Positions 126 through 48,355 of a stretch of DNA of 64,000 nt are shown piece after piece (within the stretch, counting starts at the first letter, position 1; each line of letters starts with the position of its first letter). The translations under genes were made by a program, and so were the position numbers. The stretch is taken from IMG/VR virus record IMGVR_UViG_2713896908_000007; one strand, written 5' to 3'. The notes beneath the pieces were generated by a model, which worked only from the letters and a program-made list of their open reading frames with translations, was not told the DNA's origin and did not search any database. This DNA is from a virus. Taxonomy: Duplodnaviria > Heunggongvirae > Uroviricota > Caudoviricetes.

Positions 126-144
126 AAATGACTACTCGTAGAAT
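126..144 (+). promoter_or_regulatory. candidate late promoter (AAATGACTA-N4-TAGAAT)
   Basis: Resembles the AAGTNACTT inverted repeat plus -10-like hexamer that recurs upstream of late operons in this window; overlaps an 11-bp inverted repeat spanning 135-169. Confidence 0.3.
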
Positions 145-175
145 CGGTTAACACACCAGATTCTACGAGGTTTCA

Positions 176-742
176 ATGACACCACGACAATTACTCGAAG
201 ACGTCAAAACCCGCTTCACACCTTTGATTGCGGATGAACCTGCCTTACTGGAATCCCTGCTAAGAAAAGCATTGGGAACCTACCAGGATAGGGCGGGACA
301 CATCAAGCGGATACGCTTCACTGATCAGACCTGTAAATCACTTGCTTGCCCTGCTGATTTTCTTGCGCTCGTATCGGTTACGGATCATACCGGCGATCTT
401 GTCTACTCCGACGTTTACGATGGGAATATCGAGCTTGAAGATACCCATCGAGCGGTATACCCGCTGAATGTGTCATATCTGGCTAATTTACGTGATATGG
501 ATCTGGATAATGGGGAGGTGCCACCTGAAATCATTGGGTTACTTTCTGACTATCTGGAAGTGTTAATCGCGATACCTAACACAGATCGCCTGCGAAGAAT
601 ATCTATCGCGGGGAAACTCGATGCCAGCAATTTATCCGACGAGAACACGCTGTATCAGCGAAAGCTGGATCTGGAAGAGAAAATGAGCGCAACAAGGGCA
701 ATTATCCCGGGAATTGTTCTTTTCTCATCCATGTTGAAGTGA
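176..742 (+). CDS. hypothetical virion morphogenesis protein (tail module upstream of sit)
   Basis: 188-aa ORF, GAGG 5 nt upstream of ATG; first of four co-directional genes ending in sit; no domain recognised. Confidence 0.55.
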
Positions 743-752
743 GAGGGCTGAT

Positions 753-1364
753 ATGGGGTTTAATGTTGCTTCAGTAAAGTCTTATGTATCTTCGGCATTA
801 ACGACGACATTATTTGGCTCCGGCGTTGGTGAGCGGGAAGTCGGTAAGCTGACGTCAATCATCATGAACAAAATGTTGTTCGCGCAAGGATGGCAGTTCT
901 CTGTCGAAGTTGATGGACTGGAGGGGGCAGACTTCTTTGCCAAAGACATTACCTACCACGATTACAGCATCGAATATGAAACGATTAAAATCGGCGGAGG
1001 GAATATCCTTCAACCAACGGAGCGTTCGCCTGGGCAGATAACAATGATGGTCAGGGATACCGTTGATGGCCTCGTTTTGGACTGGTTTAAGACGGCAAAA
1101 AGTCGGGTGATTAATCCAGACGGTACCGGGAATATACCGTCTAAATATTTGCTCAATGTGCGTATTTATCGGTTGCTGTCTTCCGGCTTAACCAAACTGG
1201 AAAATGAGATGACTGTATTCCCGGTCACTACCGGCGATGTCACCTATGCGCGGGATCAGGTTACGGAATTTAAGTCATTCCCAATGACCTTCGCATTGCA
1301 CAGCACGTTTAACCAATCCTCAAGTTCTTTGGCTTCCCTTCTGGGCTTTAGTTTTTCTCTTTGA
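753..1364 (+). CDS. hypothetical tail module protein (possible tail tube by size and position)
   Basis: 203-aa ORF 10 nt after previous stop; function inferred only from context. Confidence 0.5.
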   Translation: MGFNVASVKSYVSSALTTTLFGSGVGEREVGKLTSIIMNKMLFAQGWQFSVEVDGLEGADFFAKDITYHDYSIEYETIKIGGGNILQPTERSPGQITMMVRDTVDGLVLDWFKTAKSRVINPDGTGNIPSKYLLNVRIYRLLSSGLTKLENEMTVFPVTTGDVTYARDQVTEFKSFPMTFALHSTFNQSSSSLASLLGFSFSL

Positions 1365-1378
1365 ATTAAGGAGCAAGG

Positions 1379-2260
1379 ATGCTTTTACCCCTTTTCCCGC
1401 TACCATCGCGGCCAACTGAATTGATCCAGTTCCGTCAGCCAAATATTGCTGATGCGATGCGTTTCAACTCGATAACACCGGAGGAACAAGAACAACAGAC
1501 AACGGCGTATTTAAAAGCCTTGCTGGCTGAACCCGCGAAACATGATCCCCTGACATGGACGGCGCAGGACCGGATTACCGCGTTATGGTGGATATTTACC
1601 GGCTCCCGTGAAACACCGGTCGAGACATTCACCTACACCTGTAAACATTGCGGTAAAGAGCATTATTACGATTGCGATATGAATGCTCTGGCTGAAGATA
1701 TCCAGGTCCTGGAAGTGGAACCTTTCATTGACGATATTGAGGTGTCTGTAGAGGGAGTACCTTATCAATGGCGTATCGTGCCGCTTGATGGTTGGGCAAT
1801 GGAAATGCTGGAGATGCGCCGTGCAGCATTGCCACCTGAAGACGACGCGGAATTCAAAGAAGCGATCGTTGATTTGCGTTTTTGGGAATTCGCTTATCAG
1901 TGTGAGCTTTATAACGATGTTAGCGGTACTCGTGAAGATCAGGCCGAGCGTCGTTATGAAACGATTAAACGGATGGCCATTGATACTGAATTTATGAAGC
2001 TGGCGGCACACATCCGACTGGCTCATGAAAAGCTCGAACATGGTTTACCGTGCTACATCGATAAAGGTGAAATGCGTCTTCGTCTCCCGCCGCATAAATG
2101 CCCAAACCAGGATAAAAAGGAGTCCACAGAGGGTGCGTATACCCGTCTGTGGGTGCCCTTTCGGGCTACCGACTTCATTCCACAGGTGGGGATTGAAAAG
2201 CTATCAGACCTTAGTGTCCAACCTGGTTTTGTATGGGGGTATACCGATTCAGGACGCTGA
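1379..2260 (+). CDS. hypothetical tail module protein with zinc-ribbon-like Cys motif
   Basis: 293-aa ORF; CKHCGKEHYYDCD motif; directly upstream of the tape-measure gene. Confidence 0.5.
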   Translation: MLLPLFPLPSRPTELIQFRQPNIADAMRFNSITPEEQEQQTTAYLKALLAEPAKHDPLTWTAQDRITALWWIFTGSRETPVETFTYTCKHCGKEHYYDCDMNALAEDIQVLEVEPFIDDIEVSVEGVPYQWRIVPLDGWAMEMLEMRRAALPPEDDAEFKEAIVDLRFWEFAYQCELYNDVSGTREDQAERRYETIKRMAIDTEFMKLAAHIRLAHEKLEHGLPCYIDKGEMRLRLPPHKCPNQDKKESTEGAYTRLWVPFRATDFIPQVGIEKLSDLSVQPGFVWGYTDSGR

Positions 2261-45603: not shown

Positions 45604-45620
45604 CAATTTATTAGAGCAAA
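45604..45620 (-). promoter_or_regulatory. C1 operator (cAATTTATTAGAGCAAa)
   Basis: 15/17 to consensus, 4 bp past the pacB stop. Confidence 0.55.
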
Positions 45621-45623
45621 TAT

Positions 45624-47108
45624 TCATTCATTAAGCCATGCCAGAGCTTCATCAACCTGCGCTTCGTCTTCGACGCTAAGCACTTCATCCTGGGGAACAT
45701 AATCCGCCAGCATAGCGAAACAATATGTATCCCAATGGTCTGGTGAGTGCAGGTTGAGTTTTTTCTTCATATCCTCCTTACTCATCACCTTCCATTGACC
45801 TGCGGAGTTAATCCCTACAGGGATTTTCGACGCTTCCTCAATAGTTTCATTACCCTTATCCAGTCTCATACGACCAGATTTTACGGCCTCTGCGGCTTGA
45901 ACGTTGGCATAAGCACGTTTATCAAAGTACAGGCTCTTATCTTCACGGCTATGCATCTTTTTACCCCAGCGTATACGCTGTACGGTAATACCATAATACT
46001 CGTACATCAGATCCGCCGTTGCTTTACCCAGGCCATCGCCGTCTATCGCTATGGTGATATTTGGGAATCGCTCAGGATTACATTCTGCGAAAATTTTGGC
46101 GGCAAGCTGCGTTTCTGTAACGTCTGTGTATTCCAGCATTCGATAGTTGATTACACGGCGTTTATTTCTCTGGCCGGACACCATCATGATATTGATAACG
46201 GACTTATCCCGTCCCGTACCACCAGCAACGTCCACACATGCAAGCCAGCCCCATCCTTTGGCAATCTTGACTTTCCGCCGCGTTGCACGTTCAACCTCAT
46301 CACGTCCAAGAAGGAAGCCATCCTGTGATTTAGGGAATAGGCCGCGTACCTTAATCATGTACATAGGGTTATCACGCCCGCCGTACTCCGCCAGCTTCAT
46401 TTTGATAAATGCTGGCGCTACCAACGGTGATTCCTCACTGTTAAGCGTGATCGCCGTATAAACGCCATCAGGGTTACCAGGACGCTTGGCCAGTTTATGG
46501 TGAGTATCGTAGAAATAGCCGCTTGGGCGTGTAGGCTGTGACAGCAATAAGATGCGGTTATCCTGTCCGGTAAGAGCACCGGTGATGATACCGAAAGCTC
46601 TATCACTGACACCGGAGGCTTCATCGATAATATACAGAAGATGATCTGCGTGTTCACCTGCGAGAGCTTCTTCACTTCCCAGACGAAAGCCCTTCGGTAC
46701 TACAGTCCATACACCTTTACCAGTAACTTCATAAAAAGCGGTTTCTGTCAGAACAAAATAATCAGCAAGCCACGGAAAACGGCTGGTGGCCGTAGCCCAG
46801 TTTATCTTGATGTACTTGAATATACCGGTCATTACCTGCTGAATTTTGTTCGCAACGATAATGGCTCGGGCACCGGGATACATGATTATGAACAACATGA
46901 TCATGATAGAAGTCATGTCTGATTTCCCGGTACCGTGACCAGACGAAACAGATGTCTTGCTACCCTGTTCCTGCACAGACTCAATAATCAGATCCTGCTG
47001 CCAGGTAGGTGTTTTGCCGAACAAAACATCAGCGGCCGCAATCCAGTCATAACGATATAGCGCCACCAGCTCGCGCCAACGTGGATCCGTTACGCAACTT
47101 CTGGCCAT
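45624..47108 (-). CDS. pacB: terminase large subunit PacB
   Basis: 494-aa ORF (size as remembered for P1 PacB); Walker A-like SSGHGTGKS; overlaps pacA stop. Confidence 0.88.
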
Positions 47109-48301
47109 TAATCATCATCCCCGTATAGCTTGCGGGTAACTTCTTCGTCTTCCTCCTCGTCTTCGTCCAGGTCTTGTTCCAGCCATGGGGCGTTTGATAC
47201 ACCTTCAGTATCAACATCTCCATAACCGCCTGTATCAACGATATCGGCGATTTCTTCCCTACGCTGCTCAATCCACAATGCGGCATCGGCGCGGCGGTTG
47301 GCGGCCCGTTCTCGCGCAACTTTGTCCAGATCTTCAAGAGAAGGGCCACCGACGGCTGTTTGCCTTTCCTCATCATCGGTATTGGTCTTAGGAGCACGCA
47401 GATCAGCTTTGATTTGCTCCAGCATCAAGGGCGGTACTTTCCCACCATGCGCCTCGATGAATTCTGCTGCCTCCAGCACTGACCAGTTATTTTCACGCTT
47501 TCGTTCGTATGCCAGCTTAACAATGCCAGCTTGCCCCATAGATAAAGCGTGCTTTTCCGCCTCCCGGCTTTCTTTTCGATAGTTATTCCGGATGCTGTAA
47601 ATGGTGTTGATCAGGCTGCTTATCTGCGCGGAACAGCTGTTTAGCATGCTCGCGATACGATATTCAGGCGGAGTCCCTTCATCATCGTCTTTTTGTTGAT
47701 CGCGCATTTCCTGCACCAAGCGAATACACGTATCCCTGGCGTTCTCCAGCATAAGGAGATGAGAAAGAGACTTTTCCAGAAGGGTGGTCTCCAGAACATC
47801 AGCCCCGGACCGACGCAACATAGCGCGCGCAGCCTTCCGCGCTTCAACGTTATCTATCAGGTAATCGCCAGCTTCGAATTCAAAGCGCTCACCATCATCA
47901 TCCAGGGTGTCGCGCTCCAGGCGATCACGTAAGGTCCGGTGGGCGCGGGTGATCACGTCATGATCATCTGAACGATCTTTTATGCGCTTATTTTGGCGCT
48001 TTGCATTCTCGACTGCGACACTGACAATGGCATTAACCCTTTGTTTTTCTGCTATTTCAGCCGCAATGTGATCACCTGCATGTTGATCATTAGAGTGATC
48101 AATGATCATGCTTTTTAGTGGCTTCCTGACTGGCTTATTTGGCTTGCGGCTGTCCGCAGTCCTGGTGTCTTCTTTGAAGGCACGGAGATAACGACGTGCG
48201 GTATTAGGGTTAAGATTAAACTCGGCGGCATACTGTGCGATGGTGTAACCACCATCTCGCGCCAGGCGAGCAAAATTCTTCTTGTGATCGTCCCAGGTCA
48301 C
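47108..48301 (-). CDS. pacA: terminase small subunit PacA (contains pac site)
   Basis: 397-aa ORF (size as remembered for P1 PacA); HTH-like N-terminus …[23 protein letters not shown]…; GATC/hexamer pac cluster inside its 5-prime part. Confidence 0.88.
47921..48108. other. pac packaging site (two clusters of TGATCA-type Dam sites)
   Basis: Four GATC at 47923-47977 and four at 48070-48107, about 195-380 nt into pacA, as established for P1 pac. Confidence 0.75.
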
Positions 48302-48336
48302 TTATGCTTCCTTTCGTAAAAACTCTTTTTGACGCG

Positions 48337-48355
48337 AGGGTAACGAAAGTCACAT
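48337..48355 (-). promoter_or_regulatory. candidate late promoter (ATGTGACTT-N4-TACCCT) for pacA
   Basis: Motif about 45 nt upstream of pacA start. Confidence 0.45.

Follow-up and report, generated by a model that had tools for sequence, protein, structure and literature searches.

Late-promoter elements in the window

The DNA analyzed here, a stretch of 64,000 nucleotides from IMG/VR virus record IMGVR_UViG_2713896908_000007 (the window), carries a recurrent 19-bp element at eight positions. The original prediction had assigned all eight to the late promoters of phage P1, which depend on the late promoter activator Lpa. The window has the same gene order as phage P1 (AF234172, NC_005856), to which its first 25 kb align in reverse orientation with ~96% nucleotide identity (megablast), and its segment 19500-21400 is 100% identical to Escherichia albertii plasmids, such as NZ_CP117651.1 and CP045689.1. 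Because of the P1 homology and the perfect match to these plasmids, the window is identified by homology as a P1-like plasmid prophage of E. albertii. At each of the eight sites, a 9-bp box with 0-2 mismatches to AAGTNACTT is followed by exactly 4 nt and then by a -10-like hexamer. Five sites lie on the plus strand and three (30774, 39633, and 48337) on the minus strand; each is designated by the lowest plus-strand base of its 19 bp, and scores in bits come from a position weight matrix (PWM) built from P1 late-promoter sites.

126..144, plus strand: LPsit counterpart, AAATGACTA (126-134)-ctcg-TAGAAT (139-144); identical to P1 46608-46626; 22.6 bits
8322..8340, plus strand: LPs (Ps) counterpart, AAGTTACTT-ctct-TACAAT; as P1 38318-38336 but for one spacer base, A to C; 26.5 bits
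15893..15911, plus strand: LPdar counterpart, AAGTTACTT-tgca-TACCAT; identical to P1 31212-31230; 20.6 bits
20990..21008, plus strand: candidate late-promoter-like site, ACGTTACTT-tgca-TATGAT, preceded by tgag; 13.0 bits; 134 nt upstream of the ddrB open reading frame (ORF)
25761..25779, plus strand: LPlyz counterpart, AAGTGATTT-gcat-TATCCT; identical to P1 20969-20987; 24.0 bits; kept in Cronobacter phage JK004
30774..30792, minus strand: LPpro counterpart, AAGTGACTA (30792-30784)-gtgt-TAAATT (30779-30774); identical to P1 17251-17269; 26.3 bits
39633..39651, minus strand: LPmat counterpart, AAGTGACTT (39651-39643)-cagt-CAGAAT (39638-39633); identical to P1 2678-2696; 24.5 bits
48337..48355, minus strand: LPpac counterpart, ATGTGACTT-tcgt-TACCCT; identical to P1 90475-90493; 24.3 bits; kept in JK004

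All eight elements were thus present as predicted, every one with the 4-nt spacer. The literal consensus held less widely: AAGTNACTT was exact at three of the eight sites (8322, 15893, and 39633, where the box spans 39651-39643), and the other five departed from it by one base (20990, 25761, 30774, and 48337) or two (126). Similarly, the hexamers fitted the predicted TAnnnT at seven sites, the exception being CAGAAT at mat, and matched TATAAT at three to five of six positions.

GenBank entry AF234172 annotates eleven late promoters in P1, ten of which consist of a 9-bp '-22 region', 4 nt, and a -10 signal; the spacer of the remaining one, LPhot, is longer. Seven of the 19-mers in the window were identical to these annotated features, except for the one spacer base in LPs, and the assignment to P1 late promoters therefore stood base for base at seven sites but not at 20990, where the surrounding DNA is missing from P1 and the site has no counterpart. 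The seven are followed by genes matching P1 pmgC, R, lydA, lyz, prt, mat, and pacA, and the first downstream ORF begins at the same distance as in P1. The LPsit counterpart precedes pmgC-tub-pmgB-sit (ATG 31 nt downstream), the LPs counterpart the tail-fibre genes R-S-U (ATG, 30 nt), the LPdar counterpart lydA-lydB-hdf-darA-ddrA (GTG, 28 nt), the LPlyz counterpart lyz (ATG, 86 nt), the LPpro counterpart prt-pro (TTG, 42 nt), the LPmat counterpart mat (19 nt), and the LPpac counterpart pacA-pacB (GTG, 35 nt).

Chance matches, or ordinary constitutive sigma-70 promoters, might also give such recurrences without any dedicated promoter class. Consistent with this, the 9-mer with one mismatch was not enriched by itself (29 matches against 24.5 expected), and five of the eight boxes are imperfect. 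By contrast, the composite pattern was about ten times enriched: a box with at most one mismatch followed by N4 and TANNNT occurred seven times in the window against 0.71 times (sd 0.82, maximum 4) in 200 dinucleotide-preserving shuffles of it. The exact 9-mer occurred four times against 0.88 expected, and the exact 9-mer with N4 and TANNNT twice against 0.01 expected. When the spacer was varied for a box with at most one mismatch plus TANNNT, we obtained seven matches at 4 nt, one each at 6 and 9 nt, and none at 2, 3, 5, 7, 8, or 10 nt, indicating that the 4-nt spacing is specific. A -35 hexamer at the usual distance was lacking from every site; at 16-18 nt, the closest resemblance to TTGACA was 0-2 of six positions throughout, at or under the random background, and a perfect TTGACA was found only at LPmat, 19 nt from the -10. 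Moreover, all seven counterparts head late operons, all seven are annotated late promoters in P1, and, in the five pairs compared, the core is kept in JK004 while the flanks diverge (see below). The set of sites is far above chance, and hardly any credence is left for chance or constitutive promoters as its source.

A few further matches in the window were set aside. A fourth exact copy of AAGTTACTT lies at 5302-5310, within the sit gene, where it is followed by tgac-CAACTC; it has no -10 hexamer and is probably not a promoter. The matches at 42309 and 42328 fall within loxP (42311-42344, ATAACTTCGTATA), whose arms in the region 42309-42346 read ATATAACTT-cgta-TAATGT and AAATAACTT-cgta-TAGCAT; they are Cre-binding arms with a coincidental fit, not promoters. 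The loxP arms were the sole extragenic false positives of the pattern scan with one to two mismatches, and the minus-strand arm at 42328 is the one spacer-4 match outside the eight listed sites. In the parts of the window that are not shared with P1, additional late promoters were rejected, all matrix matches of 9-14 bits being intragenic or antisense.

Divergent relatives of Lpa were found by tblastn in JK004 (67% identity) and in phage D6 (31%). In JK004, PWM sites immediately precede the genes that occupy the positions of P1 pmgC, R, lyz, prt, pacA, 23, and 26; the LPs site, for example, is kept upstream of gene_4, the gene at the position of R. In five site pairs between JK004 and the window, box and hexamer agreed at 63 of 75 positions, as compared with 246 of 580 (42%) in the flanks (60 nt, ungapped), indicating that selection acts on the box and hexamer.

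The 'palindromic' box also carries cues to its orientation, namely the preceding AC and the central base. The dinucleotide AC (AG in LPdar) stands directly before the box in eight of the nine one-way P1 sites and AC in all nine JK004 sites, the latter having been found with a matrix that included these positions. In the promoter direction, the central base of the P1 and window sites is G or T, never C or A. Outside the window, two P1 sites not annotated as late promoters have high scores. The first, at P1 63962-63980 on the minus strand (taacAAAGGACTT-catt-GATAAT, 17.1 bits), is located 19 nt upstream of ppfA and has a JK004 counterpart at 23653-23671 (minus strand), 18 nt upstream of gene_25 (23212-23634). 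The second, at P1 76780-76798 on the minus strand (caacAAGTGACTG-gtga-TAACCT, 20.4 bits), lies inside gene 7.

Taken together, these observations make it very probable that seven of the eight sites are Lpa-dependent late promoters of an E. albertii P1-like prophage, direct counterparts of P1 LPsit, LPs, LPdar, LPlyz, LPpro, LPmat, and LPpac, and that the match at 20990 is most likely fortuitous. Some caution is due for the seven, in that we infer promoter function in this element from near-identity to P1. In addition, the JK004 flanks were compared without gaps, which underestimates their identity. The PWM separates the seven sites (20.6-26.5 bits) from the next best match in the window (14.0 bits), but it was made from P1 sites, which makes the high scores of their counterparts circular in part; the tests by shuffling, by spacer length, and against JK004 do not lean on the P1 matrix in the same way. 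The finding itself is already known, being textbook knowledge on P1 with base-by-base annotation in GenBank, and P1 late transcription has been described since the early 1990s. Its use is thus one of annotation only: the late-operon boundaries of the E. albertii P1-like prophage are fixed, and the biology of P1 late transcription is unchanged. The only part not annotated in P1 is the site at 20990, whose use by Lpa is unproven and improbable.

The site at 20990 and the gldA cassette

The candidate at 20990 lies in the upstream region of a foreign cassette. The region 19575-21122 has no equivalent in P1, as mapped by blastn over the whole window. This 1.5-kb insert comprises a hairpin with a T-run (19664-19700), gldA (19736-20839, minus strand), and 283 bp of DNA upstream of gldA. 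The gene belongs to the Fe-ADH family, is annotated gldA in the plasmids, encodes a glycerol dehydrogenase of chromosomal type, and is ~88% identical to E. coli gldA. Comparison with phage JL22 showed that 21123-21179 comprises the normal ddrA end and ddrB start, which places the insertion of the cassette at the 3' end of ddrA. The following ORF of 562 aa (21143-22831) starts at the authentic ddrB start codon, and P1 homology resumes only at P1 26188, which points to an in-frame internal deletion (562 aa, as against 995 aa in JL22). The arrangement of gldA and deleted ddrB is common to 15 E. albertii P1-like plasmids.

The hairpin (19664-19693, with the T-run extending to 19700) has a folding energy of -18 to -24 kcal/mol and a z-score of -3.9 to -5.0, and is followed by AAUUUUUU on the plus strand. 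Placed between ddrA and the convergent gldA, it resembles a terminator acting in both directions and would end the LPdar transcript before ddrB. Upstream of gldA, we also noted a perfect 19-bp palindrome, GTCAACATTATAAGTTGAC, at 20913-20931, and a direct repeat, GAGATGTTACTTCGC and GAGACGTTACTTTGC, within 20947-21001 at 40-bp spacing, the second copy of which is the 20990 box. The palindrome and the repeat look like regulator sites of the gldA cassette.

We searched for the source of this DNA with the 250-bp segment 20873-21122. Only the 15 E. albertii P1-like plasmids and two other plasmids were recovered from the plasmid collection, and the phage collection matched only the ddrA/ddrB junction (21123-21179), not the segment. 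A scan of genome contigs for the 22-nt palindrome region gave no match, nor did a scan of viral contigs for the 20990 site itself. In the contig scan, the gldA start region matched Escherichia and Shigella chromosomes, with homology ending 33 bp upstream of gldA.

These features allow an alternative in which all eight sites work, and 20990 drives late expression of the deleted ddrB, cut off from the LPdar operon by the cassette and its terminator; we regard this as unlikely. Several features nevertheless speak against a fortuitous match. The 20990 site has one box mismatch, the exact 4-nt spacer, a TATGAT hexamer matching TATAAT at five of six positions, and no -35; it resembles LPdar (tgag-A[A/C]GTTACTT-tgca-TA); and among the intermediate-scoring matches it alone combines an intergenic location with the orientation of the next gene. 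Furthermore, the hairpin at 19664-19693 and its T-run should halt LPdar transcripts, and with such a terminator after ddrA, ddrB probably needs a promoter of its own. The ddrB gene of phage D6 has its own late box of the D6 type, in the 94-nt gap after ddrA.

On the other side, 20990 scored 13.0 bits, as compared with 20.6-26.5 bits for the seven counterparts, and the C at box position 2 is found in no P1 site. Its score ranks tenth in the window, and shuffled windows hold 0.7-1.4 such matches under the three models that also score the 4 nt before the box, or about 4 (up to 4.4) under core-only models. Because about one equally good match is expected per shuffled window, the site is not distinguishable from chance by sequence. 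The ddrB start codon is 134 nt away, whereas the seven counterparts all lie closer to theirs. Two plasmids outside the P1-like group, the IncF plasmid NZ_CP117601.1 of E. albertii and the IncFIB/IncI plasmid NZ_CP148324.1 of E. coli, likewise carry the 20990 sequence next to gldA, indicating that it predates insertion into the prophage. The copy in NZ_CP148324.1 has a 5-nt spacer and no P1 DNA in its flanks, and the box in NZ_CP117601.1 reads ACATGACTT. A second GAGAYGTTACTT copy, 40 bp upstream of 20990 and without a hexamer, suggests a site for gldA regulation, and a sigma-70-like promoter on the minus strand that faces gldA (TTGAAT, 16 nt, TATCAT) overlaps the 20990 hexamer. Finally, the PLSDB gene table of an E. 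albertii plasmid lists no coding sequence for the 562-aa ORF, although this table omits pseudogenes and is incomplete. The known copies of the site are confined to cassettes that are 87-100% identical, too alike for a test of core against flank conservation.

An eighth P1-type late promoter is thus unlikely, given the lack of a P1 counterpart, the foreign cassette, and the chance-level score. The match was most likely carried in fortuitously with gldA. A variant in which a working Lpa promoter arrived ready-made in the cassette, a look-alike that restored late ddrB expression, seems doubtful; if true, 20990 would represent promoter capture by a phage regulatory circuit.

The mat start and the prt/darB intergenic region

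In the track of ORFs, mat begins at a GTG at 39649 (minus strand), which the original prediction had noticed to lie inside the gene's own promoter. We confirmed that this codon falls within the -22 box (39651-39643), in frame with an ATG at 39613 that corresponds to the curated P1 mat start and gives a product of 250 aa. Pmat, an annotated sigma-70 promoter of P1 with TTGACA 19 nt upstream, has its -10 in common with LPmat. As the GTG is inside the box, a transcript from LPmat, or from Pmat with the same -10, cannot contain it, and ATG 39613 is supported as the mat start.

The box upstream of prt had been proposed to be shared with the divergent darB. It is near-palindromic (AAGTGACTA in one direction, TAGTCACTT in the other) and lies between divergent genes, and one shared box is annotated in P1, that of the LP26/LPpmgL pair; a two-way late promoter for both genes would have this precedent. 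The spacer gtgt, which is kept in JK004, also places 'AC' upstream of the reversed box. In the darB direction, however, the element reads TAGTCACTT-gtta-AGGATT (hexamer 30797-30802), with two of six matches to TATAAT and no T-A at positions 1-2, and the equivalent hexamer in JK004 is AGGATC. AGGATT overlaps the darB Shine-Dalgarno sequence AAGGA, and the darB ATG at 30807 lies 4 nt past the hexamer. A start 5-9 nt after the hexamer would therefore fall on or beyond the start codon, leaving the transcript with neither ribosome-binding site nor start codon. The PWM gave 8.1 bits in the darB direction as opposed to 26.3 bits in the prt direction, and P1 curators placed a sigma-70 promoter, PdarB, farther upstream, inside prt. 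Sharing with darB is accordingly not supported, a two-way promoter at this position being highly improbable, and the box is predicted to serve prt only.

The activator lpa, exchanged blocks, and related systems

The activator gene and its control region are encoded in the same element as the late-promoter sites.

49721..50173, minus strand: lpa, late promoter activator, 150 aa; Pfam PF25716 BPP1_LPA, 193 bits
50219-50246, minus strand: Plpa promoter, within an exact match (50219-50260) to P1 89904-89945, annotated Olpa/Plpa
50244-50260, minus strand: C1 operator Olpa, within the same exact match

Lpa is identical to P1 Lpa at 149 of 150 residues (99.3% identity, tblastn), and only residue 150 differs (I to M). 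This change is caused by a 1.33-kb insertion at 48386-49717, exactly at the lpa stop codon and 30 bp upstream of the LPpac box, which leaves the LPpac 19-mer untouched. The insertion encodes a 393-aa TnpB of IS200/IS605 type (48503-49684, plus strand; Pfam OrfB_IS605 and Cas12f1-like TNB). An extra antirepressor module resembling icd/ant, with ORFs of 73 and 371 aa, is found at 43931-45264 (minus strand) between c1 and pacB; at the nucleotide level it is 70-80% identical to P1 icd-ant1. The module follows pacB directly, on the same strand, and might be reached by read-through from LPpac.

The blastn map of the whole window against P1 comprised the following blocks.

1-10354: P1 46751-36304
15880-19574: P1 31244-27549
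21185-23127: P1 26188-24243
24222-27746: P1 22538-19001
29025-38279: P1 19018-9750
38985-42327: P1 3344-1
42328-43897: P1 94800-93232
45626-48385: P1 93204-90445
49718-52194: P1 90446-87970
58388-64000: P1 84482-78869

Between the last two blocks, P1 87970-84482 (humD, lxr, hot, upfM-O, and pmgV-T) is replaced by other DNA at 52194-58388. The translations there revealed a type I restriction-modification system at 52295-58312, consisting of hsdM (520 aa), hsdS (406 aa), and hsdR (1038 aa), which takes the place of the P1 block with the LPhot promoter. No LPhot counterpart was found in the window, this region having been exchanged, and the spacer scan gave a match with a 9-nt spacer only at loxP. 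LP23 and the LP26/LPpmgL pair fall past the end of the window, which stops at P1 78869, whereas LP26 lies at 78485. The type III EcoPI res-mod genes of P1 (3344-9750) are absent between 38279 and 38985 of the window. The comparison shows that, although cargo has been inserted at several places, the predicted C1, Lpa, and late-promoter cascade has remained intact.

Transcription from P1 late promoters needs both Lpa, whose conserved binding sequence is centred at -22, and SspA, a co-activator supplied by the host (PMC3152322). Lpa recognizes DNA sequence-specifically and is believed to make contact with SspA on RNA polymerase; late-promoter DNA is not bound by SspA itself (PMC1891329). With Lpa on the box, Lpa/SspA-dependent transcription in P1 starts 5-9 nt after the hexamer (PMC3152322, PMC1891329, PMC10695390). 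We take the mechanism from these P1 studies; the window contributes sequence identity, layout, the activator with its control region, and conservation. In the prophage, the C1 repressor on Olpa would keep lpa silent, and upon induction Lpa would be made from Plpa. Lpa would then bind the 9-bp box centred near -22 and, with host SspA associated with RNA polymerase, allow the sigma-70 holoenzyme to start at promoters that have a -10 but no -35. The operons for tail, tail fibre, lysis and Dar, lysozyme, portal and protease, maturation, and packaging would thereby be switched on. By analogy with P1, we infer that initiation in this element depends on Lpa and SspA.

P1 is the closest known system. 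Its late promoters, which Lpa (gp10) activates together with host SspA, have the same 19-bp sequence (bar one spacer base), the same downstream genes, and the 9 + 4 + 6 layout of the window sites; like these, they are without a -35 hexamer, and lpa and a C1 operator reside in the same element. The host element differs, being an E. albertii plasmid prophage with other cargo.

Phage D6 has the same gene order and regulatory logic: its operons for tail fibre, lysis, capsid, portal, and baseplate are headed by a short conserved box near a -10-like hexamer. In D6, however, the box is AAATCACA instead of AAGTNACTT, and the activator is only 31% identical. This recurring box, read by eye from 110-nt upstream regions without a statistical test, precedes a -10-like hexamer upstream of the counterparts of R, lydA, 23, 26, prt, 7, upfC, and ddrB, which fits a scheme in which the box changes together with its activator.

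At T4 middle promoters, a MotA box centred at -30 is used, and AsiA remodels sigma-70 region 4, so that a phage activator box replaces the -35 while the -10 is kept. The likeness to the window would lie in sigma appropriation without a new sigma factor. The box at -30 with AsiA in T4 differs from the box at -22 with host SspA in P1, and there is no sequence relationship between them.

PigR of Francisella, which acts with the MglA-SspA complex, offers a comparable arrangement: the activator, sitting on DNA, is believed to touch an SspA-family protein carried by RNA polymerase. That system controls a bacterial virulence regulon rather than a phage, and its DNA sites are unrelated; P1 Lpa-SspA has been cited as the precedent for the PigR/MglA-SspA model (PMC1891329).

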